Below are positions 1,851 through 22,553 of a stretch of 32,000 bases of DNA, one piece after another; positions within the stretch are counted from its first letter, which is position 1, and each line of letters starts with the position of its first letter. The position numbers and the translations under genes were made by a program. The notes under the pieces are model-generated. The model was not told the DNA's origin. It ran no database searches and saw only the letters and a list, made by a program, of their open reading frames with translations. The stretch comes from Bradyrhizobium diazoefficiens (GTDB lineage Bacteria; Pseudomonadota; Alphaproteobacteria; Rhizobiales; Xanthobacteraceae): the NCBI GenBank assembly GCA_018129965.1, contig JAFCKW010000005.1. The stretch is one strand, 5' to 3'.

Positions 1851-3022
1851 GGCGAAACCGGCCTCTTGCCGATCGCAACTCCGGTCAATGTCTGGTTCAG
1901 GTGCATTGCGCGGTACTGTTCGCCGTAGGTGTGAAACCCGACCACCCGATTTTCGCGATAAAGTTCAGACATGTCGCGGGCGAATTGATGCTGTTCCGCA
2001 TCCAGCCGCCGAAACAGACATTCAAAGCCGATATAGAGCGAGACCTCGCCGATCTCTGCCCGTGTTTCAGCAAACAGCTCGAGCATTGCTCCGATCGGAT
2101 TACGGGCTTTCGCTACGGTGAGGACCATTCCTTCATCGATAGCGCAGTAAAAATTGAGAGATCCGTCGTCAGGATTTACCCGCTGGATCGAGCGTGCATA
2201 GTACGTGCCGCCGGCCCGGACAAGAACGGGATGAGAAGCAAACGAAAACATATCAAGGTGGGTGTCACCGATTCCAACTGCACGCGAATATTCCTGGGCA
2301 GCCGGCTCCGCATTCAGCTCCTTGACAACGCGCAATTCTATATCAGCTTCGGTTACCACCATCTTTGTCGATGTCGGCTCGAAGTTATCGCATTTGAATA
2401 GGCGAAAGGGCAGTGACGTTGTCAGAATGATCAGCACCGCGGCGTCGGTATGGGCCTGGCCGTCGCAAAAGACCCACGTCTGTCCAAAACGCAGACCGTC
2501 GCCCGCGGATCCTCCAACGACGTGAATATTATCGAGCGACGCGTAGAGCGCCGACATCACCACATCCTCGCGTTTGCACATGCCATCAATCAGCAAAAGT
2601 CCAAAGGATTGTCGATCCGCTACTTCTGGCGAACATCGTGTAAATTCTTGCCGCAGCTCGGCGCCAATTCTGCGGCCATCCTCGACCCGAAATTGGGCGA
2701 GATCGAGTAATGGCCTCGCGACTGCGCTAAAGTCCTGCGCGCTAAATCCCAGCGCGACAACGCTGTTGTCATCCCAGCCTCCGGGCGCAAGTTCGCCAGC
2801 AGTCGTGCAGCCATAGACCGGAATGGGTCCATAGATTTCAGCGATTTCAGCGGCAAACTCGTGCGGATCGTAGCAAGGCGAACAAAAGACGATAACAATC
2901 GCCAGTCCGTCCCTGGGCAGTTGCCGAGCAATCTCCGCCGCCGCCTCGACTGCCGACGACGCTTTCGCCTGGACGACGGCGACGCCAGATTCATTGCTGA
3001 ACCGGTGATCGGTCCTACCCAC
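1847..3022 (-). CDS. FIST-domain signal-transduction sensor protein
   Basis: FIST_N/FIST_C-like pattern (IVIVFCSPCYDPHEF, VYGCTTAGEL, LLLIDGM, VVGGSAGDG, GFHTYGE). The ORF track extends to 3106. I prefer the GTG at 3022, preceded by GAGAGGGA at about 8 nt. The extra N-terminal 28 aa look like read-through into IS debris. Confidence 0.7.
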   Translation of the reverse strand: MGRTDHRFSNESGVAVVQAKASSAVEAAAEIARQLPRDGLAIVIVFCSPCYDPHEFAAEIAEIYGPIPVYGCTTAGELAPGGWDDNSVVALGFSAQDFSAVARPLLDLAQFRVEDGRRIGAELRQEFTRCSPEVADRQSFGLLLIDGMCKREDVVMSALYASLDNIHVVGGSAGDGLRFGQTWVFCDGQAHTDAAVLIILTTSLPFRLFKCDNFEPTSTKMVVTEADIELRVVKELNAEPAAQEYSRAVGIGDTHLDMFSFASHPVLVRAGGTYYARSIQRVNPDDGSLNFYCAIDEGMVLTVAKARNPIGAMLELFAETRAEIGEVSLYIGFECLFRRLDAEQHQFARDMSELYRENRVVGFHTYGEQYRAMHLNQTLTGVAIGKRPVSP

Positions 3023-3244
3023 CTGGTTGATCCCTCTCTCGTCAGCCTTGGTGCGTTGCCAAGGCGTTTTTCTTTCGATGATAGGGCTTTCTTCCGACCG
3101 CCGCAAGAATATGCAACAAAACTCGGCAGGTTGCCCTGCAGGCGGAACTGCTCAAAGGCCGCCATCCATATCTTCTGACGGTGCTTCTTCCGATTGCGAT
3201 CGCCGGTGACTGGCCTGCTAACTAAGGGGTCGTGCCGCGCGGTG

Positions 3245-3726
3245 CTAGACTGGAACGCCCGCACGCTTCAAACGCACCGGATTGCTCGTCCAGCTCCCGG
3301 GAACGAAGAGACGTAATGCCACCATTGGCGTCAGCGACACCAATGTTTGGCAATTGGCCATCTTGCCGAAAGATGAGACATGTTGCGGAGCGACACCAAC
3401 CGAACGAACGCCCTTCTTCGGAATCGCTGTGTCATTGATGACCGGCACCGCATATTTGCCGCCGACGAGGCGGTCGGCCTGAATCAACAGTTCCGACTCC
3501 AACGGCGCCGCATCCCAGACGCCATCAGCGATGAAATGGTGCAACTGGTCATAGTCGCCCGGCGCCAGCCGCGCCGCCATAGGCTGGACGCTCTTGCGAT
3601 CGCCCGGCGCGCCCTGTGACCCAGGCAATCCAGGAACGGCTCAAGCCAGCGCGCAAGCTCTTCTTCCCACCTCGACTGTGTTTCCAACATGGTCGGCCGT
3701 CCAAAAGCCGACCACCCATGGATCAT
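3245..3726 (-). mobile_element. IS701-like DDE transposase remnant (N-terminal part, frameshifted and truncated)
   Basis: Two frames carry consecutive N-terminal transposase pieces. These are WEEELARWLEPFLDCLGHRARR (3484-3726 frame), then RKSVQPMAARLAPGDYDQLHHFIADGVWDAAPL...INDTAIPKKGVRSVGVAPQHVSSFGKMANCQTLVSL (3245-3628 frame). The catalytic C-terminal half is absent. Weak similarity may continue to about 3110. Confidence 0.6.
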
Positions 3727-3787
3727 TGAAAACCTGATTCGGGAATCCAGTTGCGCCGATCAAACCAAAAAATCTGCCAAAGTAGCG

Positions 3788-4090
3788 CTAGGCAATTTCT
3801 CGGGCTGTTTGAGTCTGTTGTGCGAACTCGTGCGGCGTCAAGTTGCCGAGTGATGTATCAGACACTCCGCGCGGATGGACCCGTTGAAGGTTTTGATGAA
3901 CGCGTTGTCGCGTCGGCTTGCCTAACCGGCTGAAGTCCAGCGTGACGCTTCGTTGACAGGCCCACAGATCGAGGTCGCGTGAGACAAACTCCGTTCCCGG
4001 CTCGACACGGACTAAGGCGGCCATCTTGGCGCGACCAATTCGTCGATGAGCTCAAGACGGTCGGCTTGGTGCTATCCGCGGAGAAATTGA
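3788..4090 (-). mobile_element. IS3-family transposase (OrfB integrase-core C-terminus) remnant, frameshifted with internal deletion
   Basis: VRVEPGTEFVSRDLDLWACQRSVTLDFSRLGKPT, then in the next frame DNAFIKTFNGSIRAECL, then LGNLTPHEFAQQ. This is the canonical DNGxEF...FSRPGKPTDNAxIExFNG...ECL...LGxxTPxEFA string broken over frames. Confidence 0.55.
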
Positions 4091-4449: not shown

Positions 4450-6135
4450 GTGCGTTCGGATCAAAACTATTTGCTGCAAGCCATCCTTGACAATTTCCCC
4501 GGCGGGATCTCGGTCATGGATTGCGACCTGCGCATCATCTTTGCCAATCCGGCGGCGCGCCGAGTTCTCGATCTGCCGGACAGCATGTTTGTCGGTGATC
4601 CGCCCTTTCTCGAAGAAATATTCCGCTTCAACGCACGCCGCGGCGAATACGGACCCGGCGACGTCGAACAACAGGTTTCGGCCCGAATAGAACTGGCGAA
4701 GGCGCGAAAGCCTCACGTATTCGAACGCCAACGTCCCGACGGGATTACCATCGAGGTCCGGGGCGCTCCGGTCGAAGGCGGCGGGTTCGTCACAACATAT
4801 ATCGACGTGACAGAACGGCGCCGCAATGAAGCCCGCATCGAACACATGGCCCATCACGACGCGTTGACCGAACTGCCAAATCGCGTGCTGTTTCATAAAC
4901 GCCTGGGCGAAGAACTCGCGCGCATCGCCCGCGGTGGCAATCTCGCCGTGCTATGTCTCGACCTCGACCACTTCAAGAATGTCAACGATACGCTCGGTCA
5001 CCCGGTCGGGGACGTGCTGCTCAAAATGGTGGCGGAACGGCTCAGCAATTGTTTGCGCGACACCGATGTCGTCGCGCGCTTCGGCGGCGACGAGTTCGCG
5101 GTTATCATGCCGATAATAGATGGAGATCGCGACGCCGAAGGGCTGGCGCGCAAGCTGATTGATGTTCTGGGTTCCCCTTACGAAATCCAGGGGCAAGAGA
5201 TCATTGTCGGGGCCAGCATAGGCATCGCGATTGCACCACGCGATGGCGATGCCACCGAGGGGTTGCTGCGCAATTCAGACATTGCCTTGTACCGTGCCAA
5301 GGTGGATGGCCGCGGGCGTTTTAGCTTTTTTGAGCCGGAAATGGATCGGCGTATCCAGGCGCGGCGGACGCTCGAGCTCGAGCTTCGCAAAGCCTTGAGC
5401 AACGGCGAGTTTGAACTCTACTATCAGCCGGTGGTCAATTTGCGAAGTGGCGACGTCAGCGGCTTCGAGGCCTTGCTGCGATGGCATAATCCCGAGCGCG
5501 GCATGGTTTCGCCAGCCGAGTTCATTCCTCTCGCCGAAGAGACAGGCCTCATTATTCCGCTGGGCGAATGGGTCTTGCGCAAAGCCTGCGCCGAAGCGAT
5601 CACCTGGCCGCTCCCCATTAAAGTGGCCGTAAATCTTTCGCCAGTCCAGTTCAAGAGCCGCAATCTGGTCCAGGCTGTTCTGACCGCGCTGGCTTATTCG
5701 CGGCTGCCGCCCGGGCGGCTGGAGCTGGAGATCACCGAAACCGTGCTTCTAGGCGACACCGACGCGAATTTGGCCACCCTCCATCAACTGCGCGAACTCG
5801 GCGTGCACATTTCGATGGACGACTTCGGCACCGGCTATTCTTCGCTAAGCTATCTGCGCAGTTTCCCGTTCGACAAGATCAAGATCGATCAATCGTTCGT
5901 GCGCGAGCTCACGGAACGGCCGGATTGCATGGCAATCGTCCGCGCGGTTGCCGGCCTTGGAACGAGTCTTGGCATCACGACGACGGCGGAAGGGGTCGAA
6001 ACACAGGAACAGTTCGACCGCCTTTGTGCCGAGGGTTGCACCGAAATGCAGGGATATTTGTTCAGCCCGCCACGGCCGGCAAGCGAAGCTGTGATGTTGA
6101 TGTTGAGAAACTCTGTCATGGTCGATGTCGCTTGA
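4450..6135 (+). CDS. PAS-GGDEF-EAL cyclic-di-GMP turnover protein
   Basis: N-terminal PAS-like segment (LLQAILDNFPGGISVMD). GGDEF domain with an intact RFGGDEFAV motif. EAL domain with FEALLRW, ELEITE, DDFGTGYSSLSYL and QGYLF motifs. GTG start. Confidence 0.9.
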   Translation: MRSDQNYLLQAILDNFPGGISVMDCDLRIIFANPAARRVLDLPDSMFVGDPPFLEEIFRFNARRGEYGPGDVEQQVSARIELAKARKPHVFERQRPDGITIEVRGAPVEGGGFVTTYIDVTERRRNEARIEHMAHHDALTELPNRVLFHKRLGEELARIARGGNLAVLCLDLDHFKNVNDTLGHPVGDVLLKMVAERLSNCLRDTDVVARFGGDEFAVIMPIIDGDRDAEGLARKLIDVLGSPYEIQGQEIIVGASIGIAIAPRDGDATEGLLRNSDIALYRAKVDGRGRFSFFEPEMDRRIQARRTLELELRKALSNGEFELYYQPVVNLRSGDVSGFEALLRWHNPERGMVSPAEFIPLAEETGLIIPLGEWVLRKACAEAITWPLPIKVAVNLSPVQFKSRNLVQAVLTALAYSRLPPGRLELEITETVLLGDTDANLATLHQLRELGVHISMDDFGTGYSSLSYLRSFPFDKIKIDQSFVRELTERPDCMAIVRAVAGLGTSLGITTTAEGVETQEQFDRLCAEGCTEMQGYLFSPPRPASEAVMLMLRNSVMVDVA

Positions 6136-6187
6136 GCGTGGGTTGAACTTCGATTCCGCGATAGTGACATTCTCCGATACATTTTTG

Positions 6188-6280
6188 AGACTGTACGGCA
6201 TGCATGGATGCCGGCCTGATCAAGGGCGAAGCCTTCGTCGTCGATGCAAACATTAGCGAAGCAGACGCCAGCCGTTGTCA
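6188..6280 (+). mobile_element. Short fragment resembling an IS5/IS1182-type transposase
   Basis: Translation ACMDAGLIKGEAFVVDANISEADASR resembles the conserved GLvxGExFAvDaSxIxADAS stretch of IS1182/IS5-type transposases. About 30 codons only, with stops on both sides. Confidence 0.35.
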
Positions 6281-6289
6281 CGGCAACAC

Positions 6290-7014
6290 CCTGCCATTGA
6301 GTTGATAGACGACGACATACAAAGTCGTGCGTGAAAAATTTCTAAGCCATTGAGCGCGAGTCAGTTTTTGGCTCGCTTGCGGGTTTGAGATTGCAGGGTT
6401 CAGGCGCGCACAACCTTCGTGGCGCCTCCGGCCGCGCGTCGCAAGAGGTTTTCGTCGAGCTGGCGTCAGCGGTCTTGTATCAATGTATCCGGTCTCTGAT
6501 TGGAGCGAGTTTTGCTCCGGACCAATATGGATATCAGCGCGCGCGCGTGCGATCTCATTATGGACAGGCCTCAACGGGCCATTTGGGTCACCAGTGTCGC
6601 ATGCGCCGGTAAGACCGATCCTGCATCTCTTCTTATCCTCTCGCAAACCTCATCGAGTAAAGGGTGCGGTGGCTTGCCAACAGCATGGGCTCGACCGCCT
6701 GCTTGAGCCGCGTCTTCTCTATCGCGACCATCTCGGTCGACTGGCGACAGCGCCTTCAGGGCTTGCTGTTCGGCGGAAGACAGCGGGCGGATCTCGTCGA
6801 TCATGACAAGAGCGAAGCGCGCAATCAGCCGCGCGTCCAGCCTGTCGGTCTTGGCGCGCCGCCCCTCGGTCTCGCGGAAGGCCTTGATGCGGCGCGGATT
6901 AACGATGCCGATCGCCTCCAACATGAGGCGGCTAACACCCTCGTGCCGGAGCCTGCGGATGCCATCGGCGATGGTAAGCGAAGGCGCTTGCTGCGCGAAC
7001 GAGGCTGCTGTCAT
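6290..7014 (-). mobile_element. IS110-family transposase remnant (multiple frameshifts and deletions)
   Basis: IVNPRRIKAFRETEGRRAKTDRLDARLIARFA is the hallmark N-terminal IS110 (DEDD) motif. The following LKALS.R..EMVAIEKTRLKQ segment appears in a shifted frame. The N-terminal EATG region is deleted and the C-terminal part is only vaguely recognisable. Confidence 0.55.
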
Positions 7015-7350
7015 GGATTAGACTTGTATGCCGACTTGCAGCGCCAGGCCGCCGTCCTTGCGACTGTTCGATCGAGAGACCCGACGCAGACGCCGTTGCC
7101 GGGCTACGACCGCGCCCGCGGCCAGGAATCCAACGAGCTGTCTGCTTCGCCTGTCACTCTACAGTGACGAGGCCAAGATACCGGAATCCACTTTTCGGGA
7201 TCAGGCCCTTGGGCCGGACGCCAGTCGGATAGGTCCGTCAGGCGCTTCAGCAACGACCGCGGGCAGGTGGGACCCTAATACTAAAGGACCGTATCCCAAG
7301 TCATAGGACAATAGTTGACTAAGTTATCATCAGCGAGAGGAGGCGGGACT

Positions 7351-8130
7351 ATGCATGCCATCTTGGAATCTGAGCCGCGGGCGGCTGACCCGCAAAAAAC
7401 GAAAAAGATGATCAATCTCGTGCCGGTGGCCATCTCCTGGGGAGTGCTGCTCGCCATCTACGTAGGGCTTCGGCTTTACCAGCAGGCATTTGCGTTCAAG
7501 TACGGCCTGGATTCGACATCCCCCGAATTTGCGACCTACTGGCTGACGCTGTTCAAAGTCGAGGTACCGCTTATTTTCGGGGTGGGCTTCGCCATTTGGG
7601 CCTACCTTTGGCTCACCCGGGATAAGAACCTCGACAAGATCGACGCCGAAACGGAACTGCGCCGCTACTTTAGCCTCGTCGCGTGGTTTTTGCTGTATAC
7701 GTTTTCTTTTCTGTGGATTGCTAGCTTCTTTGGTGAGAGCGATGCTAGTTGGCATCAAACCGTGATTCGCGACACCGCGCTTACTCCCAGCCATATCGTC
7801 GTATTTTACGCTTGTATTCCACTGTATATCATCTTGGGCGTTAGCAGCCTTCTATATGCTACCACGCGGATTCCCAAATTCTCAAAAGGCTATTCGGTGC
7901 CGCTCATCATGGCTGTGCTCGGGCCCGGGCTCATTCTGCCGAACCTTGGCTATAACGAGTGGGGCCACGCGTTCTGGCTCACTGAAGAAATCTTCAGCCA
8001 TCCGCTCCATTGGGGCTTCCCGGTTCTTGGGTGGACCGGCTTTGCTCTTGGCGGCGTCCTTCTTCAGGCGACCATGAGGATGGCGGAGCTTTTCAAAGAG
8101 ATCGATGGCGCAAACTTGGCGAAAGCCTGA
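7351..8130 (+). CDS. pmoC: Copper membrane monooxygenase subunit C (PmoC/AmoC family), divergent
   Basis: FFGESDASWHQTVIRDTALTPSHIVVFY gives Asp-x3-His-x12-His. NEWGHAFWLTEEIFSHPLHW gives Asn-x3-His-x13-His. Both have the spacing of the PmoC metal sites as I recall them. Multiple TM helices. ATG at 7351 is preceded by GAGAGGAGG with 7-nt spacing. The TTG at 7315 in the ORF track is unlikely. Confidence 0.9.
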   Translation: MHAILESEPRAADPQKTKKMINLVPVAISWGVLLAIYVGLRLYQQAFAFKYGLDSTSPEFATYWLTLFKVEVPLIFGVGFAIWAYLWLTRDKNLDKIDAETELRRYFSLVAWFLLYTFSFLWIASFFGESDASWHQTVIRDTALTPSHIVVFYACIPLYIILGVSSLLYATTRIPKFSKGYSVPLIMAVLGPGLILPNLGYNEWGHAFWLTEEIFSHPLHWGFPVLGWTGFALGGVLLQATMRMAELFKEIDGANLAKA

Positions 8131-8170
8131 CGCCTTGGCTGATGCCGGCGATGGTGGACAATGCGAATGT

Positions 8171-8218
8171 AGGCGGTGTCTCTGCTGAATCGACTGACTG
8201 ACAGGTAGGACACCGCCT
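8171..8218 (+). promoter_or_regulatory. Intercistronic stem-loop between subunit C and A genes (10-bp perfect stem, 28-nt loop)
   Basis: AGGCGGTGTC (8171-8180) is the exact reverse complement of GACACCGCCT (8209-8218). No U-tract follows, so it is not a canonical intrinsic terminator. The loop contains GACTGACTGAC. Confidence 0.5.
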
Positions 8219-8269
8219 TCGGCAAAGAACCGTTGCCTAATCATAAGAATACGAATTACCGGGGGGAGC

Positions 8270-9073
8270 ATGACTGACAACGATCAGGCAATTTTAGCTG
8301 CGGCAGAAATGTCGCCAAGAATAGCGCGCTATTCACGAACTTTCGACTACCTGATTGTCGTCATAGCTGCCTTCCTTGTATGGTCTGTTACGCACATCCA
8401 TTTTCTCCTTTTCGCTGGGGACTGGGATTTTTTTATTGACTGGAAAGACAGACAGTATTGGATTCTGATAACGCCGATAGTCTCCATAATGTCGGCCGCG
8501 GCATTTCAGGCGATTTTCTGGTCTCTATTTCGCCTGCCAATCGGAGCGACAGCTAGCGCACTTCTGTTCCTGATCGGCGTCTGGATTGTCAGATACCATA
8601 GTTGGGAAGGCATGGCCTACTTCCCGCTCAGTCTCGTTGTTCCAGCGACCGGTCTAGTCGGAGCGATGGCGCTCGACTGCATCCTCGTGCTGAGCCGAAG
8701 CTGGGTTATAACGGCCGTGTTCGGCGGCGTTATTTATGGTCTCTCGTTCTTTCCGACAAACTGGATTTATCTGGCGCCATATTTCCAGCCAGCAGAGCAT
8801 ATGGGTGAGATGGCGTCTGTTGCCGATATCATCGGCTACGTCTTTCCTCGTTCAGGCACGCCTGAATACATAAGAATTATCGAACGCGGAACCTTGCGCA
8901 CGTTCGGCGACTCCGCAAACTGGGTCTCAGCATTCTTTTCTGCGTTCGTTTGCATATTCGCCTACTCGGTGTTCTGGTTGATGGGTGTGGCCGCTTGCAC
9001 ACCCAAATACATACCGGTGGGATACCGCTTCAAGGAGCTTTATGGCGCTAAAATCGATGCGGGTGCCGTATGA
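8270..9073 (+). CDS. pmoA: Copper membrane monooxygenase subunit A (PmoA/AmoA family), divergent
   Basis: HIHFLLFAGDWDFFIDWKDRQYW and RSGTPEYIRIIERGTLRTFG match the two most conserved PmoA/AmoA blocks. Polytopic membrane protein. GGGGGGAG SD sits before the ATG. About 20 aa longer at the C-terminus than the PmoA sequences I recall. Confidence 0.9.
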   Translation: MTDNDQAILAAAEMSPRIARYSRTFDYLIVVIAAFLVWSVTHIHFLLFAGDWDFFIDWKDRQYWILITPIVSIMSAAAFQAIFWSLFRLPIGATASALLFLIGVWIVRYHSWEGMAYFPLSLVVPATGLVGAMALDCILVLSRSWVITAVFGGVIYGLSFFPTNWIYLAPYFQPAEHMGEMASVADIIGYVFPRSGTPEYIRIIERGTLRTFGDSANWVSAFFSAFVCIFAYSVFWLMGVAACTPKYIPVGYRFKELYGAKIDAGAV

Positions 9074-10329
9074 GCAAGATATTGAAAAAGGCGACGTTGC
9101 TCGTTTTGGCCGCGACGACATTGCTATTTTCCCTTATGGATCAGGCCGCATTCGCGCACGGCGAGCGGGCGACCGAGCCTTACATCAGAACGCGCACTGT
9201 GCATTGGTATGACGTCACTTGGTCAACCGATGCGCTTAACGTCAACGACACAGTAACCGTCCAGGGCAAGTTTCACTTATTGAACGATTGGCCGGATTCG
9301 GTGAGTCTGCCCAATCTGGTGTTCCTTTCCAACGGCTCGCCCGGCGCCGTCATGACCCGCGTAGAATCGTACATCAACGAAATTCCCGCACGGCAGTCCA
9401 CCAAGGGTTTGATCATCGGACGGGATTATGACTTCAAACTCGTTATGAAGGCGCGTAAGGTGGGACAGTGGCACCTTCATCCGGTCATGAACATCCATGG
9501 GGCCGGGGCGGTCGTTGGGCCGGGAGAATGGATAACTGTCAGCGGCAACGAAGCGGATTTCAAGGATCCGCTCACGACCTTGACTGGAAACAAGATCGAC
9601 GATCTGCAAACGTTTGGCGTTTCACGCGTGCAGATGTGGCAGTTTGGGTTCGGGCTGATTGCCGCGGTGTGGATCCTATGGTGGCTGCGCAGGCCCCTCA
9701 TCATTTCGCGCTGGCTCGTGGTCCAGAAGGGGCGAGAGAACCTTCTCATCACTCCAATGGACGACAAGGTTGCGGCGGGGCTGCTGGTCCTCTTGGCGAT
9801 GGTGGTGCTGGTCGGATACACCAGAACGACGTCCGAGTTTCCGGAACTGGTTCCGCTTCAATCGGGGTCTCTCTCCGCGCCGCCACTGCCCAAGCCGCCC
9901 CACGCGGTTGAAGTCAAGTTCAAGAGGGCCGAGTACGACGTTCCCGGTCGGTCCATGCGCTTGAGCGTAGAGATGACCAATACGTCCGATCAACCCGTGA
10001 GCGTTGGCGAGTTCACCACCGCTAACCTGCGTTTCATAAATAAGAGTCTTCCTGCGGCGGTGGCGGCAGTCAGTTCGAAATTTCCGAAGGAGCTGGTCCC
10101 CCGGAACGGCCTTGTCATCGACAATCCGGAGCCGCTTGCACCTGGTGAAAGCCGTCTGGTGAACCTGGATACAACGGATGCGGCATGGGAAGTAGAACGT
10201 CTGGTGAGCTTTCTTTCTAACGTTGACAGTAGAATGGGCGGATTGCTGTTTTTCTATGACGGGAAAGGCAACCGCTCCATGAGCGAAGTATACGGGCCCA
10301 TTGTTCCAGTCTTCAAAAAGACGATCTGA
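9070..10329 (+). CDS. pmoB: Copper membrane monooxygenase subunit B (PmoB/AmoB family), divergent
   Basis: The signal peptide ends AAFA|HGE, so the mature N-terminus is His30. HGERATEPYIRTRTVHWYD...GKFHLL and GQWHLHPVMNIHGAGAVVGPGEW align with PmoB copper-ligand blocks. Two central TM helices are followed by a C-terminal beta-rich domain. ATGA overlap with the subunit A stop. Confidence 0.9.
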   Translation: MSKILKKATLLVLAATTLLFSLMDQAAFAHGERATEPYIRTRTVHWYDVTWSTDALNVNDTVTVQGKFHLLNDWPDSVSLPNLVFLSNGSPGAVMTRVESYINEIPARQSTKGLIIGRDYDFKLVMKARKVGQWHLHPVMNIHGAGAVVGPGEWITVSGNEADFKDPLTTLTGNKIDDLQTFGVSRVQMWQFGFGLIAAVWILWWLRRPLIISRWLVVQKGRENLLITPMDDKVAAGLLVLLAMVVLVGYTRTTSEFPELVPLQSGSLSAPPLPKPPHAVEVKFKRAEYDVPGRSMRLSVEMTNTSDQPVSVGEFTTANLRFINKSLPAAVAAVSSKFPKELVPRNGLVIDNPEPLAPGESRLVNLDTTDAAWEVERLVSFLSNVDSRMGGLLFFYDGKGNRSMSEVYGPIVPVFKKTI

Positions 10330-10358
10330 AGCCAGGTTTAATAGGACGAAGCTGCGCG

Positions 10359-10967
10359 ATGGTCGATAAGCTCACGATCAGGAGGTACTCCAGATCGGCA
10401 TTGCGCGGCCTTTCGTTTGCAGTGCCTCTGCTGGTTTTGTCGTCCCAGCCGGCCTCTTCCCACGGTGGCGTCAGTATGGAAAATGACGTGTGTAGGCTCC
10501 GATTGGGAGCATACATCATGCACTTTACCGGGTACCAGCCGCAAGCAACCGGCAGCAGGGAGTTCTGCGAAGACATTCCGGAGACCGGCAAAACCGTGGT
10601 GGTGCTGGACGCGGTTGATGAGGCTCTGCGCGACATCCCGATCGAGGTGCGAATCGTGCGGGATACGGGAGACAACAGCAATTTGGAGACCATCACCGTT
10701 GTGCACCTGCAGCCCAAAGTTTACCCCTCTGGCAGCATTGCCTTGGAATATACGTTCGACAAGGCTGGAAAATTTATCGGACTGGTTACCGCGGGCGCAA
10801 AGGGCGAATACGTCTCACGGTTTCCCTTCAGTGTGGCTTCTGGAAAGTCGTTCTACGAGAAATACCTGCTTTTCATCGTAGTTCCATTGGTAGGATTTGC
10901 CTTATATCGTTATTCGGCACGTGTCAGAAAGAAATTGGACACCCGCCTAAGTATACCACCAAACTAG
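10359..10967 (+). CDS. Secreted, C-terminally membrane-anchored beta-rich protein of unknown function (PmoD/AmoD-like architecture; possible copper protein)
   Basis: Lies 29 nt after the subunit B gene on the same strand. The signal peptide ends PASS|HGG, giving His35 as the predicted mature N-terminus. Has Cys45-x8-Met54-His55 plus Cys70. About 125 aa with alternating beta-strand-like pattern. One C-terminal TM helix (YLLFIVVPLVGFALY) is followed by a basic tail (RVRKK). Confidence 0.6.
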   Translation: MVDKLTIRRYSRSALRGLSFAVPLLVLSSQPASSHGGVSMENDVCRLRLGAYIMHFTGYQPQATGSREFCEDIPETGKTVVVLDAVDEALRDIPIEVRIVRDTGDNSNLETITVVHLQPKVYPSGSIALEYTFDKAGKFIGLVTAGAKGEYVSRFPFSVASGKSFYEKYLLFIVVPLVGFALYRYSARVRKKLDTRLSIPPN

Positions 10968-11065
10968 CTGGGATAAGGCCGGTGATTGTTTGGCCAGGAG
11001 GGGGAACGGGCCTTGCCGCCAAGCTCGCTAGGAGAGCTAGCGCGACCGGCGAGGCGAAGCTGAGG

Positions 11066-12001
11066 ATGCGCGTTGTAATTGCGCTTGTGGTGGCATCGTG
11101 TTCTGGATGCTCCGGATCATCGGAGCCGCCGGAGGGGACTTCGGTCGTCAGCTTCGACTATGCGCACGCTGTGCGCCGCGGCTCCTGTTCCCCCGGCAGC
11201 AAGCCGGCCGGAGCAGGTGCCACCGACGGCCTCACATCGCGCGATGGCTTTCATTATAACGTGAGGGCACCTGCAAACCTCGATCCGACCTATGCGCATC
11301 CGCTGCTCGTCGTCTATGCGCCGGCGGGCTATGATGCGAAACAGAGCGAATCCCTCACCCGCCTCACCACCGAGGCAACCCGCAGCGGCTTCGTCGTGGT
11401 TTATGTCGGTAGCCGTCCTCTATCGGTGAAGACGATAGAAAAACTTGCGCAGCTACCTAAAGAAGTTGCCGCCGTTTGGTGCGTCGATCCAAATCGAGTG
11501 TATGCGACCGGCCACTCCGATGGCGGAACGGTGTCCATTGCGCTCGCCGTTCTGGAAGAGACTACAGGCACCGTGTCGGCAATTGCTCCGAGCGCCGCGG
11601 GCTTCTCTCGGAAAGACCTCGAAGCCTTTCGATGCCCGAAGCCCATTCCGGTGATGGTCATGCACGGCAAGCAGGACACACATTTTCCGGGCTGGGGAAA
11701 GGAAGCCGCCCTGTGGTGGGCGCGCTGCAATGCCTGTAACATTAGAAGATTGCCTGTGTCGCAAGACAATGGGTGCCTCGCCTTCCAGGGTTGCGCGCCC
11801 AACGGGACCACGATTTACTGTGAGGGCGGCGGTTCTCATAAGGACTGGCCGCCGTTGCAAAACGAAATATTGCGATTTTTCGAATCCGTCAGCTCGCTGG
11901 GGATGCGGCAAGGAACTCTGCAAGCTGGCCAACTTTCGGAAGATATCCGGCGTCATGGTCTAACCATTCGTCTGCTGCACGAATCTCGCTGTTGCCTATG
12001 A
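11066..12001 (+). CDS. Lipoprotein alpha/beta-hydrolase, PHB-depolymerase/LpqC-type esterase family
   Basis: Lipobox VVASC directly after MRVVIAL. Nucleophile elbow GHSDGG, acid-residue block VMHGKQDTHFP and His block GGGSHKDWP. The ORF track starts at 10982, but ATG 11066 gives a sensible lipoprotein signal. Confidence 0.7.
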   Translation: MRVVIALVVASCSGCSGSSEPPEGTSVVSFDYAHAVRRGSCSPGSKPAGAGATDGLTSRDGFHYNVRAPANLDPTYAHPLLVVYAPAGYDAKQSESLTRLTTEATRSGFVVVYVGSRPLSVKTIEKLAQLPKEVAAVWCVDPNRVYATGHSDGGTVSIALAVLEETTGTVSAIAPSAAGFSRKDLEAFRCPKPIPVMVMHGKQDTHFPGWGKEAALWWARCNACNIRRLPVSQDNGCLAFQGCAPNGTTIYCEGGGSHKDWPPLQNEILRFFESVSSLGMRQGTLQAGQLSEDIRRHGLTIRLLHESRCCL

Positions 12002-12345
12002 TGCCGGTCCACGCGAATGGCGGTCATGATCCGGCACGGCGTTTGCGAAGCAGCGCTCACTTGGCCCGCAAGATTGAGTTGCCGACGGGCCGTATCTTTG
12101 ATGCACTGCATCATGTCTATACCGCTCGGACGCTCGGGGCGAAACCCGTGACCTTGAAGCTATTCTGGTCGAGCCGAGAGACGCAAGGCAGGCCCAGACA
12201 TTGCCCATTTCCAGCGCCGCGCGATGCGCTTAATTGTAATTGTTAGCCACAAATACCGTATTCAGAAGGGTAGCTGCATCGTTCATCTGCGATTTGCTCT
12301 GAGAGAACCCGTTAGAGGGTCGCGCGCCGAGTATGGGAGGACAGA

Positions 12346-12520
12346 ATGACAGAGCTTGTGCCGCCGGATCTGATCCCAAACTGGATCCCCGGCGAGAAGA
12401 TCGTGGACAGTTCTCACCTTGGCTGGAGCGGCCTAACGCTCAAAGGGTATCACTATCCTGACCAGGAAGCGAACATTCCCTTAATGCGCGACTACATGAT
12501 CGTTATCTATGAAGGCGCCG
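12346..12520 (+). pseudogene. N-terminal fragment of an AraC-family regulator (truncated)
   Basis: MTELVPPDLIPNWIPGEKIVDSSHLGWSGLTLKGYHYPDQEANIPLMRDYMIVIYEG resembles the cupin-type N-terminus of AraC regulators. The frame then runs into the antisense of the reductase remnant. No HTH domain is present. Confidence 0.4.
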
Positions 12521-13482
12521 CAGTCGGCGCCGGCGCCTTGAGGCCACAGAGGCTGCGCGCGGCGATCTGGGCCTGCGACGTGGCATTGTGGATCGTCTCG
12601 ATCCGGAAGCGCCCGCCAAGGTAGGGGTTATCCGCGGCGGTGCAATCGCCGATGGCATAGATCTTCGGGGCGGAACTGCGCATGTGGCTGTCCACGACGA
12701 TGCCGTTCGTGCAGGTCAGACCCACCTGACCGCCAGTCCGTGATTGGGCACCGCGCCGATCCCGACGATGACCAGATCCGCCGCAAACGCCTCGCCGCTG
12801 TCCAGGATGCAGGCGCTGACCCTGCCATCGCTGCCCGCGATCGAGCTCAGCCGGGTGTTGAGCCGGATATCCACACCCTCGGTTCGGAGCCGCTTTGTCA
12901 CAAGGTTGGAAGCAGAGGGCGTCGCGACCCGCGCCATGACGCGGCCGGCAGCCTCGATCACCGTGACCCGCTTGCCCTATTCGACAGCCGCCGACGCGAT
13001 CTCCAATCCGATCACCCCGCCGCCTAGAATGGGAAGCGAGGTGCAGCCGGCGAGCGCTTCCTTCAGGCCCCGCGCATCGGAAAGGCTGCGCAGATAGCAG
13101 ACGCCGTTCAGGCCGGCCCCCGCGCAGTGCGCTGGATCCGGTTGCCAGGATCAGCGCCTCATAGGGATACGCCCTGCCTCCCTGGTGACGACTCTGCTGC
13201 GGGCGCGGTCGATCTCGACAACCTTGGCGCCGGTCTCGAGCTGGATTCGGTTCTGTTCGAAGAACGGCTCCGGCTTCAGCCGGGTCGCCGCGCCCCGGTG
13301 GCAAGAAATGCCTTTGAAAGTGGTGGCCGCTGATAGGGCGCCACAGTTTCCGCGCTCAGCAGCGTGACTCGGCCTTCAAAGCTGTGTTGCCGCAGCCAGG
13401 ACGCGGCGTAGACGCCGGCGGTTCCAGCTCCGACGATGACGATACTCTCCTCCATTAGCGCATCCTTTTCTGTTCCGGCCAA
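12507..13482 (-). pseudogene. Rubredoxin/ferredoxin-NAD(P) reductase (AlkT-like FAD pyridine-nucleotide-disulfide oxidoreductase), pseudogene
   Basis: The pieces lie in order over three frames. They are IVIVGAGTAGVYAA...APYQRPPLSKAFL; YPYEALILATGS; GVCYLRSLSDARGLKEAL...ILGGGVIGLEIASAAVE-TAG-GKRVTVIEAAGRVMARV...DLVIVGIGAVPN; and GIVVDSHMRSSAPKIYAIGDC...RIETIHNATSQAQIAA. There are at least three frameshifts and one in-frame TAG. The C-terminal roughly 80 aa are missing. Confidence 0.85.
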
Positions 13483-13499
13483 AGTCCCGAAATACCCCG

Positions 13500-16103
13500 T
13501 CAGATCAGATTGCGACGCTCGGCCTCGCTGATGGCCTGCACGCGGTTGCGTGCTTTCAGGTCAGCGAAAATCTTGCGCATATGCCATTTCACCGTGTCTT
13601 CGCTGACCAGGAGCTGGTCGGCGATCCGCTTGTTCGAAAGTCCATCGCGGGCAAGTCGCAGGACGCTGATCTGCCGGACGGACAGCGTGGTAAGCTCGGG
13701 GGGGAGCGAGGGCCGCTCAGTCCTTGGCCTTGGCCTGGCGATCCCGTCGAAATCGAACGTGACAAAGGCATCGGCGGATGCCGGGGTCAGGGCCAGCAAC
13801 AGATCCCGCGTGTCTAGCCCAGTCCGATAGCATCCCAACTGCTTGATGAGTTCGAAGGCATTGACCGCCTTTCGTCGTGCGGGTGTCAGCGCTCCGGCGG
13901 CGGCATGGGCCGCGGCTTCGCACATCAGCGCGCGCACTTCCAATCGACCAGCGCCGATCGACCGGGCGATCTTGGCAGCCGCCTCGGCATTGCGGCGGGC
14001 GAGGCTGTGCTGCCGCTTGGGGATGGCTTCCATCGCGCGCAACAGCGATATTTGAGCACGCATGGGTCTTGCATGGGGCCCGGACAGGACCTCACCAGAG
14101 TCCCTCGGCAGCAGGTGGTCGACGTCGTGCGTACCGCTGAAGAGGGCCAGTTCGGCAAGTTCCAACTCGATCAGCACTCCCAGTCGCGGCAACGACCTTT
14201 CCGCCGCAAGCGCGCGTGCCCGTTCCAGCAACGCCGCGGCGCCCCTGATATTGCCCTTGGCCCGATGCCATGTCGCGATGACGCGGCTCACACCGTAGAA
14301 CACGTCGGTGACGCCGTAGTTGAAGATGAAGTCAAGCAAGCCGGCGATGGAATTCTCGTCGAAATCCAGCCGCCGTTGCTCGAACAGCGTCTCAAGTTCC
14401 AGAGCGATCAGCATCTTTGACGAAAAGGATGTACGTGTCACCTCAACATCGCTGTCATTGCGGGCGGTATCGATAAGCTGCAATGCGGCGCGCATGTCGC
14501 CCCGGGCGAGAGCCGCGTGGATCTCGGCCGCATAAAGCCAGCCAAAAGCATAGCGCTGGCGCGCGGCGCTGTTGACCGAATGGGCCATGATCAGGGCCTG
14601 CTTCAGTTCGTCAAACCGGTATTCACTGGCCAGCATGAAGGCCAGACAGGTGAGTGCCGCACCCTTACCGACGGAATTATCGTCGCCGAAGTTTTGGATC
14701 CAGTCGTTGCACAGCCGTTCGCTCAATTGCAGTTCGTCATGGGTAGCAGCACCAATCGCGCGGACCAGTTGCAGCCAGCCGCGGTCAGGATGCGCGCCGG
14801 ACGGCGTGCGCGGGGCGGGCAGATAGGCCAGCAGCTTTTCGGCTTTGTCGGCCTGCTGGCTGAAATACATGGTCCAGGCGTAGCTGAGGCAGATGATCGG
14901 ATGCTTGCGCAACTCGCGGGCTGGGAAACGGCCAAGCCATTCGCGCAACGCCTCGATCTCGCCCTGGCGCAGGGCGAGATCGAGCATGATGTCCTCGCTC
15001 AGTCCCAGCGCCCAGCGGTGGTCGCCCGCCCGCAGCGCAAGGTTTACCGCCCTCTGGAACTCGCGCCTCCGCCAGTGCCAGAAGGCCGCGCGTTTCAGGA
15101 CATAGGATTTTCGCTCGGCACTGCGCGCCAAAAACCGATGCTGAAGGTAGTCGCGTAGAACCGGGTGCAACGAGAATAGCGTCGGGCCGCTTTCGGCCGG
15201 GCGAAACAGCAAATGATCGAGGTTGATCTCCTCGATCAGCGCGGCGGCGTTGGTGGACTTGTAGGCGTAATTGTAGCTTTCCGCCGAAATCGGGTCGATC
15301 ATCGCTGCGTTTTCAACGAACTCAAGCTGCTGGCGCGACAGGCGCCTCTCGATCTCCTCGTGGAGGAAGGTTACCGTTTCAGGCCAGTTTGCCGCGGGCC
15401 GGACCGGCAATTCGGTCCGGCACATGATGTGGCAGAGCGCGGGCCAGCCCTGCGTCTCCGCGATCATCTGCTGCGCCGTTACGTTGGGGACCGGGTGCAC
15501 CTTCAAGAACGCTTCGGCATCATCCAAGGTAAAGGCCAGATCGCGGGCATAGACCTCCCGCACTCCGCTTTCGAGCCCAAGCCGGGCAAAACCGCGCCGG
15601 GTATCCCCGGCGATAGCGAATCGGACATTCGGCGGACTTTCCAGCGCGAAGGTTTCCAGTGCGTGCAGCAGAGCGGGTGCGTGTTCGATGTCGTCGATGC
15701 AGATTACCTTGGCCGGCCGCTCAGCGCCGAATTCTTCCCATAGCGTGGACACCAACTCGGCCAGATCCGCCGGGACCGCCCGGTTTTCGCGGGGCGCTGC
15801 GTCGAGCAGTTGGCTGCAGATGGCCTCTGCCAGCGCGCCTTCCGTTCCGCATCCGTCGCGCAAAGACACCCAGGCCGCGTTGTTTCCAGCCGCCCTGAAG
15901 GCCAACCAGTTCTGCGCCAGAACGACTGATTTTCCATAACCCTGCGTTGCGCGCAGGATCAGTGTCCGGAGCTCCGGTTGGCCTGAAAACGTAAATCTGG
16001 GCCGCGCGATACAGCCCTTGGCGATCGTCTCCAGACGCGCGGAAATGCGGGCGGCAAGCAGCCGTCCCGAATGTATCGGGTCGTCGCTGGTATCCATGGT
16101 CAT
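13500..16103 (-). CDS. AlkS-like LuxR/MalT-family (STAND ATPase + TPR-like + LuxR HTH) transcriptional activator
   Basis: 867 aa. N-terminal P-loop ATQGYGKS. Long helical-repeat middle region. C-terminal LuxR HTH LSVRQISVLRLARDGLSNKRIADQLLVSEDTVKWHMRKIFADLKARNRVQAI. Divergent from alkB and followed 17 nt later by the reductase remnant, as in the alkST arrangement. Confidence 0.85.
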   Translation of the reverse strand: MTMDTSDDPIHSGRLLAARISARLETIAKGCIARPRFTFSGQPELRTLILRATQGYGKSVVLAQNWLAFRAAGNNAAWVSLRDGCGTEGALAEAICSQLLDAAPRENRAVPADLAELVSTLWEEFGAERPAKVICIDDIEHAPALLHALETFALESPPNVRFAIAGDTRRGFARLGLESGVREVYARDLAFTLDDAEAFLKVHPVPNVTAQQMIAETQGWPALCHIMCRTELPVRPAANWPETVTFLHEEIERRLSRQQLEFVENAAMIDPISAESYNYAYKSTNAAALIEEINLDHLLFRPAESGPTLFSLHPVLRDYLQHRFLARSAERKSYVLKRAAFWHWRRREFQRAVNLALRAGDHRWALGLSEDIMLDLALRQGEIEALREWLGRFPARELRKHPIICLSYAWTMYFSQQADKAEKLLAYLPAPRTPSGAHPDRGWLQLVRAIGAATHDELQLSERLCNDWIQNFGDDNSVGKGAALTCLAFMLASEYRFDELKQALIMAHSVNSAARQRYAFGWLYAAEIHAALARGDMRAALQLIDTARNDSDVEVTRTSFSSKMLIALELETLFEQRRLDFDENSIAGLLDFIFNYGVTDVFYGVSRVIATWHRAKGNIRGAAALLERARALAAERSLPRLGVLIELELAELALFSGTHDVDHLLPRDSGEVLSGPHARPMRAQISLLRAMEAIPKRQHSLARRNAEAAAKIARSIGAGRLEVRALMCEAAAHAAAGALTPARRKAVNAFELIKQLGCYRTGLDTRDLLLALTPASADAFVTFDFDGIARPRPRTERPSLPPELTTLSVRQISVLRLARDGLSNKRIADQLLVSEDTVKWHMRKIFADLKARNRVQAISEAERRNLI

Positions 16104-16156
16104 CGACGTCTCAAAGCACGCACGAATGAGCGTAGGATACTTGTTTGGAACACAAG

Positions 16157-16176
16157 AACTACACCTAAGTGTAGTT
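16157..16176. promoter_or_regulatory. Perfect 8-4-8 inverted repeat in the divergent regulator/alkB promoter region (candidate operator)
   Basis: AACTACAC-ctaa-GTGTAGTT. Lies 54-73 nt upstream of the regulator start and 116-135 nt upstream of the alkB start. Confidence 0.45.
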
Positions 16177-16291
16177 GTGGATCCTGACGCAATGATCTCC
16201 GCTTGCTCGGTCGCCCGCTCGGGAACCGGGAAGGGCGTACTGGTGTCACCTGCCGCGCGATGAATGGTGGGGTCAAGGGAGGATATGCCGA

Positions 16292-17494
16292 ATGATCAAT
16301 ACGCCAGAACAATCCGCTTCAACCGTGGGGTACGTTGACCACAAGCGCTATCTCTGGATGCTGTCCACCCTGTGGCCGGCAACGCCGATGATCGGGCTGT
16401 GGCTGGTGGCGCAGACCGGTTGGAGCATCTGGTACGCCCTGGTCCTGATCATCTGGTACGGGATGGTGCCGCTTCTGGACGCGATGTTCGGCGAGGATTT
16501 CAACAACCCGCCGGAAGAGGCCGTCGAGATGCTCGAGAAGGACCGATACTATCGCGTCCTAACCTATCTGACCGTGCCGATCCATTATGCAGCCCTTCTG
16601 GTGTCGGCCTGGTGGGTCAGTACCCATGCGATGTCTTGGCCCGAAATCATAACCTTGGCGCTCTCGCTGGGAATCGTGAACGGCCTCGCGCTGAACACCG
16701 GGCATGAGCTCGGGCACAAGAAGGAGACTTTCGACCGCTGGTTGGCCAAGCTGGTGCTTGCGGTTGCGGGTTACGGTCATTTCTTCATCGAGCACAACAA
16801 GGGCCATCACCGCGACGTTGCCACCCCGATGGATCCCGCGACCTCACGAATGGGCGAAAGTATCTACCAATTCTCCACCCGCGAGATCCCCGGTGCCTTC
16901 CGCCGCGCCTGGGCACTCGAGGAAGAGCGTCTGTCGCGCCGGGGCAAAAGCGTTTGGAGCCTGGAGAACGAGATTTTGCAGCCGATGCTGATCACCTTCG
17001 CGCTCTATGCGGGCCTGCTGGCCTTTTTCGGCCCCCTGATGCTGGTCTTCCTTCCGATCCAGATGGCGTTCGGGTGGTGGCAGCTGACTAGCGCCAACTA
17101 CATCGAGCATTATGGCCTGCTGCGTGAGAAGCTGCCCAATGGCCGCTACGAGCACCAGAAACCGCACCACTCGTGGAACTCGAACCACATCGTGTCGAAC
17201 CTGATCCTGTTCCATTTGCAGCGCCATTCGGATCACCACGCGCATCCGACGCGGTCCTACCAATCGCTGCGCGACTTCAAGGATCTGCCGACGCTGCCCT
17301 CGGGCTATCCGGGCATGTTCTTCATCGCGCTGATCCCGGGCTGGTTCAGGTCGGCTATGGACTCGCGCGTGGTAGATTGGGCCCATGGCGATCTGAGCAA
17401 GATTCAGATCGAGGATGGCAAGCAAGCGTTTTACGAACGCAAGTTTGGCACGGTCGGCACCGACGCTAAGCCCGGCCTGGTTGCTGCCGAGTGA
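16292..17494 (+). CDS. alkB: Integral-membrane alkane 1-monooxygenase (AlkB, di-iron)
   Basis: All histidine boxes are present: HELGHK, EHNKGHH, NYIEHYGL and LQRHSDHH. TM-rich N-terminal half. 400 aa. Confidence 0.95.
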   Translation: MINTPEQSASTVGYVDHKRYLWMLSTLWPATPMIGLWLVAQTGWSIWYALVLIIWYGMVPLLDAMFGEDFNNPPEEAVEMLEKDRYYRVLTYLTVPIHYAALLVSAWWVSTHAMSWPEIITLALSLGIVNGLALNTGHELGHKKETFDRWLAKLVLAVAGYGHFFIEHNKGHHRDVATPMDPATSRMGESIYQFSTREIPGAFRRAWALEEERLSRRGKSVWSLENEILQPMLITFALYAGLLAFFGPLMLVFLPIQMAFGWWQLTSANYIEHYGLLREKLPNGRYEHQKPHHSWNSNHIVSNLILFHLQRHSDHHAHPTRSYQSLRDFKDLPTLPSGYPGMFFIALIPGWFRSAMDSRVVDWAHGDLSKIQIEDGKQAFYERKFGTVGTDAKPGLVAAE

Positions 17495-18283: not shown

Positions 18284-18339
18284 TCAATCCGTGTCGGCAA
18301 AGTGTATCGGGCCGATCAGGCCTGCTATGGAGGTCAACC

Positions 18340-22522: not shown

Positions 22523-22553
22523 CGGCAAAAGTAACCCGCCGCGACGGGCCGCC

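Follow-up and report, generated by a model that had tools for sequence, protein, structure and literature searches.

A copper membrane monooxygenase cassette with linked PmoD-family and esterase genes in Bradyrhizobium, probably directed at short-chain alkanes

We analyzed a 32,000-nucleotide stretch of Bradyrhizobium DNA (assembly GCA_018129965.1, contig JAFCKW010000005.1), hereafter the window, in which five co-directional plus-strand open reading frames (ORFs) are listed between positions 7351 and 12001. All five are full length, and together they constitute an intact cassette, xmoC-xmoA-xmoB-xmoD-est, whose first three genes encode a copper membrane monooxygenase (CuMMO):

7351–8130, plus strand: xmoC, CuMMO subunit C, 259 aa (Pfam AmoC, 292.8 bits, profile positions 16–243 of 245)
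8270–9073, plus strand: xmoA, CuMMO subunit A, 267 aa (Pfam AMO, 270.9 bits, profile positions 3–237 of 238)
9070–10329, plus strand: xmoB, CuMMO subunit B with signal peptide, 419 aa (Pfam Monooxygenase_B, 441.6 bits, profile positions 1–380 of 380)
10359–10967, plus strand: xmoD, PmoD/AmoD-family copper protein, 202 aa (PDB 6cpd PmoD, E = 3e-19, residues 43–157)
11066–12001, plus strand: est, predicted exported lipoprotein serine hydrolase of the polyhydroxybutyrate (PHB)-depolymerase/CE1 esterase type, 311 aa (catalytic triad, fold)

A GGAGG ribosome-binding site precedes the xmoC ATG at 7351, and the start codon of xmoB overlaps the stop codon of xmoA as ATGA (9070–9073), an arrangement that had already been pointed out in an original prediction made from the letters of the window. 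The C-A-B order given there was likewise confirmed; it is the canonical gene order of pmo and amo operons. A promoter and terminator scan of positions 6100–13600 was uninformative, yielding 7 promoter-like sites (3.0 ± 1.9 expected), all of them intragenic, and fewer terminator-like sites than in shuffled sequences.

The original prediction had read the first three genes as PmoC-, PmoA- and PmoB-type subunits, and profile hidden Markov model (HMM) searches assigned each of the three ORFs to a CuMMO subunit family. Each matches its Pfam model nearly end to end and above the gathering cutoff (26.7 bits for AmoC, 27.5 for AMO and 22.7 for Monooxygenase_B), which assigns XmoC, XmoA and XmoB to the CuMMO superfamily, defined here by three such subunits encoded together. 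Comparison with solved structures gave an AmoC chain as the top match of XmoC (9pxf, E = 3.9e-71), PmoA and AmoA chains for XmoA (E = 1e-61 to 1e-65), and the PmoB chain of 3rgb for XmoB (E = 6e-108), with its histidine positions aligned. The narrower NCBIfam models gave a mixed picture: XmoC and XmoB score above the cutoffs of the bacterial ammonia monooxygenase models AmoC_BACT (336 vs. 319 bits) and AmoB_BACT (534 vs. 336 bits), whereas XmoA remains below those of AmoA_BACT (276 vs. 290 bits) and TIGR03080 (259 vs. 318 bits).

The copper ligands listed in the prediction were all recovered in XmoB and XmoC by alignment and motif search. In XmoB, His30 directly follows AFA, the putative signal-peptide cleavage site, and makes up the copper brace together with His135 and His137, while His45 and His69 form the second pair. 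These five residues align one-to-one with the histidines of solved PmoB (3rgb/1yew) and are presumably His33, His48, His72, His137 and His139 in the numbering of Methylococcus capsulatus PmoB. XmoC carries a CuC-type set, D131-x3-H135-x12-H148, and a CuD-type set, N202-x3-H206-x13-H220, such that every CuB, CuC and CuD ligand position is kept in XmoCAB relative to the solved chains of particulate methane monooxygenase (pMMO) and ammonia monooxygenase (AMO). Comparison of the cassette genes with the copies in Bradyrhizobium manausense SZCCT0118 yielded ratios of nonsynonymous to synonymous substitution (dN/dS) of 0.16–0.28, signs of purifying selection which argue that the cassette genes remain under selection.

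The prediction had estimated the identity to canonical proteins at well under half. This holds for XmoB (41% identity to PmoB in the 1yew structure) but is borderline for XmoA, which is ~50% identical to PmoA over 207–213 aligned residues, 47–49% to PxmA, 42% to AmoA of betaproteobacterial ammonia-oxidizing bacteria (beta-AOB) and 37–40% to actinobacterial HmoA-type proteins. The C-terminal extension of subunit A is real by comparison with the shorter PmoA (247 aa) but is not a peculiarity of this protein: beta-AOB AmoA (274 aa) ends in a tail that aligns with it, and a long C-terminus is common to the whole clade (267–280 aa); it is therefore not unusual.

Relatives (loci designated by L-numbers below) were collected by a scan of species-representative genomes, which returned 128 confirmed CuMMO loci, too many for CuMMOs outside methanotrophs and nitrifiers to be called rare, as the prediction had done. 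The nearest locus is that of B. manausense SZCCT0118 (L007; XmoA 98% identical), and the flanking histidine kinase, FIST and GGDEF genes are 99–100% identical between that genome and the window. The host is Bradyrhizobium, neither a methanotroph nor a nitrifier, in line with the non-methanotroph context that had been proposed, and none of the annotated ORFs of the window gave a family match to methanotrophy or nitrification genes, as had also been stated. The XmoA protein is found unchanged in 59 blocks of the assembly collection, on contigs from many samples and in the same neighborhood.

In neighbor-joining trees of XmoA alone and of concatenated XmoCAB, the window falls with loci L007–L031 into one clade (bootstrap 100/100, concatenated XmoCAB) that comprises 25 species-representative genomes with XmoA identities of 59–98%. 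The next closest relatives are no longer Alphaproteobacteria; they belong to the Burkholderiales (Sterolibacterium, Methylibium, Rhodoferax, Acidovorax and Extensimonas soli) and the Nevskiales (Nevskia, Panacagrimonas, Polycyclovorans and Solimonas aquatica), with XmoA identities of 59–80%; the sister group consists of metagenome-assembled genomes (MAGs) of Sterolibacterium and Methylibium (72/100). Also within the clade is 'Rhodoferax ferrireducens isolate OTU1' (L010, XmoA 72%), possibly one of the genomes of Rochman et al. 2020. The clade stands apart from the PmoA, AmoA, PxmA and actinobacterial Hmo references as well as from a second Bradyrhizobium clade of the ERR11 type, and the AMO references share a branch with PmoA that is separate from it. 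The pxm loci L079, L081, L085 and L089 form a clade of their own and have the order A-B-C; the C-A-B order of the window hence also sets it apart from Pxm. With the HMMs placing the three ORFs in CuMMO families and the trees setting them outside pMMO, AMO, Pxm and actinobacterial Hmo, the core of the original prediction stands. The lineage is uncharacterized and its divergence considerable, though not extreme, but its novelty had been overstated, as the clade is known, well populated and indirectly tied to short-chain alkanes; what is new is its occurrence in the host genus Bradyrhizobium.

The two additional genes, whose presence had been recorded in the prediction but which had been left unidentified, encode a PmoD homolog and an exported esterase, and are the more informative part of the locus. 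No Pfam or NCBIfam model matches XmoD. Its membership of the PmoD/AmoD copper protein family follows from the match to 6cpd, the family-invariant residues C45 and C70, and a hydrophobic C-terminal segment; the protein has a signal peptide, and the C-terminal hydrophobic helix reads YLLFIVVPLVGFALY. The metal-binding motif is C45-x8-M54-H55, of the AmoD-type Cx8MHxnC class that is usually encoded within pmo and amo operons (Fisher et al. 2018, PMC6189053). The CuA-forming Cx7MxHxnC motif of the PmoD/AmoE type, the class to which CuA formation was confined in the same study, is not present in XmoD. Homologs of XmoD come after xmoB in most related loci, as judged by tblastn. By inference from the Methylosinus pmoD knockout (Fisher et al. 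2018), XmoD would act in the periplasm as a membrane-anchored, AmoD-type copper protein that supports the function of the copper-dependent enzyme.

For est, the best start is at 11066, with an upstream GTG at 10982 as an alternative. The product has a lipobox (VVAS|C) and approximately eight conserved cysteines; across 40 homologs, S151 (within GHSDG), D204, H258 and six cysteines are invariant, and the lipobox cysteine is nearly so. Family matches are weak (Pfam AXE1 and Abhydrolase_2), and the NCBIfam PHA-depolymerase models stay below their curated cutoffs (NF050058, 44.2 vs. 150 bits; TIGR01840, 22.5 vs. 107.85 bits), on which grounds we rejected an assignment as a true PHB depolymerase. 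An AlphaFold2 model (mean predicted local distance difference test score 88.7) retrieved feruloyl and acetyl-xylan esterases, a PHB depolymerase and LC-Est1C as top Foldseek matches (E = 1e-12 to 1e-9). An epoxide hydrolase was likewise rejected, given the serine nucleophile and the carboxylesterase-type fold matches. On the strength of the invariant triad and cysteines, the lipobox and these fold matches, Est is predicted to be a catalytically competent, exported, disulfide-rich carboxylesterase. It belongs to a distinct, small and sharply bounded subfamily: a query run exhaustively over 1.84 billion representatives retrieved no more than 99 proteins at E ≤ 1e-30 and 211 at E ≤ 1e-10. The final ~30 residues (window ~11920–12001) are unconserved in homologs and of low confidence in the model, and identity to the SZCCT0118 copy stops at these residues; on its right side, the shared cassette seems to end within the 3'-terminal part of est.

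The linkage of the esterase to CuMMO genes was assessed by tblastn of the window proteins against 80 genome loci. A homolog was present at 30 of the 47 loci with C-A-B order whose sequence extends 5 kb or more beyond xmoB, at none of five pxmABC loci, and was not found in the fetched flanks of ERR11-type loci from Bradyrhizobium. The esterase gene has no fixed place: it may directly follow D, lie between B and D, lie upstream, or lie 2.5–3 kb downstream of D, in which case copC and a copD-cytochrome c fusion intervene (two loci annotated). The latter layout is reminiscent of Methylosinus trichosporium OB3b, in which the pmo operon extends as pmoD-copC-copD (Fisher et al. 2018, PMC6189053). Besides those among loci L008–L086, esterase homologs linked to xmo genes occur at L091, L092, L093, L097 and L098. 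Searching in reverse from the esterase, four of the eight homologs examined adjoin CuMMO genes. In three Nitrospira MAGs (L090, L094 and L095) the homolog instead stands in the row CTP synthase, KdsA, KpsF, CDP-alcohol phosphatidyltransferase, esterase and PlsY, a context of lipid and envelope biosynthesis, with no amo genes within the fetched flanks; one further homolog of the eight lies in an unrelated context. Overall, the esterase is co-inherited with xmo across several deep proteobacterial clades and in one Firmicute MAG, and Est and XmoB show correlated pairwise distances (Mantel r = 0.37, p = 0.001).

The Firmicute locus, L093 from an Alicyclobacillaceae MAG and one of the four CuMMO-linked cases, has the esterase directly upstream of xmoCAB. 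Further genes at this locus are a second, isolated xmoC, an ABC/FtsX pair, an AMP-binding gene and a gene for a MimR_N/GAF/sigma-54 activator; a CDP-alcohol phosphatidyltransferase gene comes after its xmoB, and in the trees its CuMMO falls outside the proteobacterial groups, alongside the Hmo-type enzymes of actinobacteria.

From the small subfamily, the invariant triad, the conserved cysteines and the co-inheritance across clades, we tentatively propose that Est is a previously unrecognized dedicated accessory of CuMMOs in bacteria that are neither methanotrophs nor nitrifiers, within a module xmoCAB-D-(copCD)-est; we regard this as possible, though on present indications doubtful. No paper tying an esterase or hydrolase to CuMMO operons was found in an incomplete coverage of the literature, and we therefore offer the association as a lead and not as a claim of priority. 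Est might hydrolyze an ester or lactone side product in the periplasm, or remodel lipids around the enzyme. The Nitrospira homologs, encoded between a CDP-alcohol phosphatidyltransferase gene and plsY, suggest that the targets of Est may be membrane lipids or lipid-like esters surrounding the enzyme and not a catabolic intermediate; full CuMMO activity would then require Est.

The closest known systems are the betaproteobacterial xmoCABD operons of Rhodoferax and Polaromonas (Rochman et al. 2020, ISME J 14:714) and the CuMMO of Solimonas aquatica DSM 25927, which have the same xmoC-A-B-D order and are likewise found in hosts that are neither methanotrophs nor nitrifiers. The Rhodoferax and Solimonas operons belong to the same 100/100 clade (XmoA of the window 72% and 66% identical, respectively) and share the esterase partner. 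Unlike these, the window has an alphaproteobacterial host, and its cassette is devoid of the copC-copD, aldehyde dehydrogenase and acyl-CoA synthetase genes of its relatives. With pMMO (PDB 1yew, 3rgb, 7s4h, 6cxh and 7s4m) the cassette shares the three subunits, the C-A-B order, the CuB, bis-His, CuC and CuD ligands and a downstream PmoD homolog; it differs in its identity levels, its separate clade, its non-methanotroph host and the absence of methanol-oxidation genes nearby. The beta-AMO operon amoCAB-amoE-amoD-copCD (PDB 9cl6, 9leg and 9pxf) has in common with it the long A-subunit tail, an AmoD-type Cx8MHxnC protein and the passing of NCBIfam AMO models by the B and C subunits, and resembles the window's relatives in the copC and copD-cytochrome c fusion genes that follow D; in contrast to AMO, the cassette has an esterase gene and no AmoE-type (Cx7MxH) paralog, hao/cycAB genes are not found nearby, and XmoA is below the AmoA cutoff.

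CuMMOs of hydrocarbon-degrading actinobacteria, namely HmoCAB of Mycolicibacterium chubuense NBB4 and the enzyme of Rhodococcus sp. ZPP, also occur outside methanotrophs and nitrifiers, and C2–C4 alkanes and alkenes are listed as Hmo substrates (PMC8784404). They differ from the window in their XmoA identity (37–40%) and their position outside the proteobacterial groups; their loci have an AMP-binding gene in place of the esterase and have no PmoD (Fisher et al. 2018). Within Bradyrhizobium itself, a second CuMMO lineage (B. shewense ERR11, B. manausense BR 3351, B. sacchari, B. altum and others) shares the genus and the xmoCABD layout but belongs to another clade (XmoA 46–47%) and shows no esterase homolog in the fetched flanks. 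The ERR11-type enzyme was listed as being of unknown function (Khadka et al. 2018), and we found no further literature on CuMMOs in Bradyrhizobium beyond that study. The two genomes labeled B. manausense, SZCCT0118 (L007) and BR 3351 (L052), carry CuMMO operons of different clades (XmoA 46%), and CuMMO content therefore varies among strains under that label.

The enzyme is probably a C2–C4 alkane hydroxylase. This reading is favored because the gene contexts of the relatives fit the uptake of small hydrophobic compounds and a route from alcohol through aldehyde and acid to acyl-CoA, but neither hydroxylamine nor C1 metabolism. At the closest locus outside Bradyrhizobium (L098, XmoA 80%), a MimR_N/GAF regulator gene is followed by xmoCAB, D and est and then by genes for an aldehyde dehydrogenase, an AMP-binding acyl-CoA synthetase and an acetyl-CoA hydrolase/transferase. 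Solimonas has a quinohaemoprotein-type pyrroloquinoline quinone (PQQ) alcohol dehydrogenase gene and a Zn alcohol dehydrogenase gene directly upstream of the operon, and on a marine gammaproteobacterial contig the operon is followed by genes for PrpD, an enoyl-CoA hydratase and a CoA-transferase. In a neighboring clade, the related operon of the propanotroph Azoarcus sp. DD4 has a TodX/FadL-type (Toluene_X) channel gene before xmoC, and two metagenomic contigs have OmpW directly upstream of xmoC (channel-gene loci L091, L092 and L097). Stable-isotope probing and reverse-transcription PCR (RT-PCR) by Rochman and co-workers are reported to link xmoCABD of Rhodoferax and Polaromonas to ethane and propane, not methane. 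In the citing passages of later papers, Rochman et al. 2020 stands for the CuMMOs of 'alkane-utilizing Betaproteobacteria', which are still called uncharacterized there, and Polaromonas, Rhodoferax and Solimonas are among the clades with CuMMO genes of unknown function in Awala et al. 2021.

By homology to the solved structures, XmoCAB would form a trimer of heterotrimers in the cytoplasmic membrane, as pMMO and AMO do, and use O2, reducing equivalents and its copper sites (the His30/His135/His137 brace of XmoB and the D-H-H and N-H-H sites of XmoC) to hydroxylate a small hydrophobic substrate. The natural substrate would most likely be a C2–C4 n-alkane (ethane, propane or butane), with ammonia and methane as side substrates at most, and the alcohol product would pass through alcohol and aldehyde dehydrogenases of the host to a short fatty acid and on to acyl-CoA.

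Several points weigh against the alkane reading. A substrate has been measured for no member of the window's clade, the betaproteobacterial xmoA lineages are described as being without experimental evidence of substrate specificity (2025 paper, PMC11964087), and the alkane use of the betaproteobacterial members is itself indirectly supported. The cassette has neither copC-copD nor the alcohol- and aldehyde-oxidation genes present in many relatives, so that activity in the host would depend on genes elsewhere in the genome. The equivalog models for bacterial ammonia monooxygenase pass their cutoffs for XmoC and XmoB. Finally, the trees are of the neighbor-joining type only, with weakly supported nodes within the clade, and were built without the Haliea Ety, Nocardioides Bmo and Methylacidiphilum PmoCAB3 sequences.

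Of the alternatives, oxidation of an oxygenated or unsaturated small molecule, i.e. a ketone such as acetone, an ether or ethene, fares best, although we consider it unlikely. Here the esterase would process the product, for instance an ester or lactone arising by hemiacetal oxidation, and an intact exported esterase linked in 30 of 47 loci is in fact hard to square with simple terminal alkane oxidation; Solimonas even has a second esterase gene (Abhydrolase_3) directly upstream of xmoC. There is precedent for such substrates, as acetone oxidation by a pMMO homolog has been reported (PMC8630023) and proposed for PmoCAB3 of Methylacidiphilum, ethylene-assimilating Haliea, for which ethene has been proposed as the substrate, carry CuMMOs (PMC6215863), and Azoarcus sp. 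DD4 co-metabolizes 1,4-dioxane. Set against this, neither the window nor the annotated loci of relatives contain a recognizable gene for a Baeyer-Villiger monooxygenase or for the epoxide or acetol pathways, Est with its GHSDG serine and carboxylesterase fold is unlike an epoxide hydrolase, and the aldehyde dehydrogenase, acyl-CoA synthetase and PQQ alcohol dehydrogenase genes neighboring the operon in relatives fit the metabolism of primary alcohols.

Still less probable is that the enzyme is a methane monooxygenase, acting for instance on methane at trace or atmospheric levels, or that the cassette is a decaying passenger without current function. The former would accord with the retention of all pMMO copper-ligand positions; the clade is nevertheless apart from pMMO, XmoA falls far short of the TIGR03080 cutoff, and the window annotation shows no methanol-oxidation genes nearby. 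Carriers of such operons reportedly did not assimilate methane in the study by Rochman and co-workers. A passenger would be in keeping with the lack of copCD and with the insertion sequence (IS) remnants, truncated AraC gene and broken reductase gene that flank the cassette, but five intact ORFs, the low dN/dS between two strains and identical copies in many samples speak against decay. Heterotrophic or co-metabolic oxidation of ammonia to hydroxylamine in Bradyrhizobium is the least probable reading, since, despite the AMO-model scores of XmoC and XmoB, the AmoD-type motif of XmoD, the AmoA-like tail of XmoA and a NosP-like nitric-oxide sensor with a hybrid kinase ~4 kb upstream of xmoC, not all three subunits pass the AMO equivalog cutoffs, XmoA is 42% identical to AmoA in a clade apart from the AMO references, no hao, cycA or cycB-like genes were seen among the annotated ORFs of the 32-kb window or the annotated flanks of relatives, and the neighbors in those relatives are carbon-catabolic.

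A C2–C4 alkane hydroxylase in this host would bear on an open question, namely the substrates of CuMMO lineages outside methanotrophs and nitrifiers. The carrier SZCCT0118 is a named strain in a genome collection and not a MAG, Bradyrhizobium is culturable and genetically manipulable, and the compact five-gene cassette makes knockout, induction and substrate tests feasible. The recurrent esterase partner provides a new candidate for what CuMMOs need beyond the three structural subunits. Furthermore, automated 'bacterial ammonia monooxygenase' labels on two of the subunits could inflate estimates of nitrification potential from soil and rhizosphere metagenomes.

Outside the cassette, the following features were annotated in its flanks:

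498–3106, minus strand: NosP-like FIST protein and hybrid histidine kinase (NCBIfam NosP, 420 bits vs. cutoff 450)
~3245–3580, minus strand: DDE_5 transposase fragment, further upstream, also present in the identical metagenomic contigs
6571–7014, minus strand: IS110-family transposase gene remnant (Pfam DEDD_Tnp_IS110, profile positions 74–130 of 155 only)
12346–12624, plus strand: truncated 5' part of an AraC-family regulator gene, 92 codons (93% identical to the start of the SZCCT0118 gene)
12507–13482, minus strand: broken rubredoxin/ferredoxin reductase, a pseudogene with at least two frameshifts (Pyr_redox_2 matches over three frames)
13500–16103, minus strand: MalT/LuxR regulator (Pfam, NCBIfam)
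16292–17494, plus strand: alkB (PDB 8sbb, E = 8e-167; all four His motifs)
17723–18283, plus strand: two-domain rubredoxin (Pfam, NCBIfam)
18340–19791, plus strand: aldehyde dehydrogenase (Pfam, NCBIfam)
19788–21437, plus strand: GMC alcohol oxidoreductase (Pfam, NCBIfam)
22062–22607, plus strand: C-terminal part only of an AMP-binding acyl-CoA synthetase, 181 aa, a probable gene fragment

Bradyrhizobium has apparently acquired the cassette region horizontally from a donor of the Burkholderiales/Nevskiales type, as suggested by its nesting among Beta- and Gammaproteobacteria, its lower GC content at third codon positions (GC3), and the IS110 and DDE_5 remnants upstream. GC3 is 0.58–0.69 in the xmo cassette and the left 12 kb of the window, compared to 0.75–0.81 in most genes to the right. 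The IS110 remnant just upstream of xmoC is likely a scar at the left edge of the cassette. The low GC3 of the left 12 kb, together with the transposase remnants, is suggestive of a genomic island.

The pair of NosP-like and hybrid kinase genes has a counterpart at L097, where similar FIST and kinase genes (2860–3981 and 15689–17002; 38% and 47% identity) flank xmoCABD-est-copCD on an unrelated metagenomic contig. The pair may be a regulatory module or its proximity to xmo a coincidence; as most relatives do not have the pair, we did not adopt it as the xmo regulator and leave it as a lead.

The original prediction had further noted alkane-oxidation genes as neighbors, and an alkB cluster (13500–21437, GC3 0.66–0.81) does lie downstream, to which the broken rubredoxin/ferredoxin reductase gene also belongs. 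As a clue to function, however, it fails: in tblastn searches of the related loci, alkB adjoined xmo in no relative outside Bradyrhizobium, and it was not found within ~7 kb downstream in SZCCT0118. In that genome the esterase gene is followed by a chemoreceptor gene and then by the intact AraC gene (297 aa, L007:17316–18209), which argues that the xmo-alkB adjacency is a strain-specific rearrangement. In the window, the cluster abuts the cassette via the truncated AraC and broken reductase genes, a rearrangement junction, and because the same fragmentation recurs in independent assemblies, the broken reductase does not reflect a sequencing error of the window. Given the missing linkage in relatives, the absence near the SZCCT0118 operon, the differing GC3 and the broken junction, we rejected the alkB cluster as functional context of xmo. 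Beyond this cluster lies the probable gene fragment of the AMP-binding type at 22062–22607; intact AMP-binding genes accompany the CuMMO operons of relatives and actinobacteria at L087, L088, L093 and L098.

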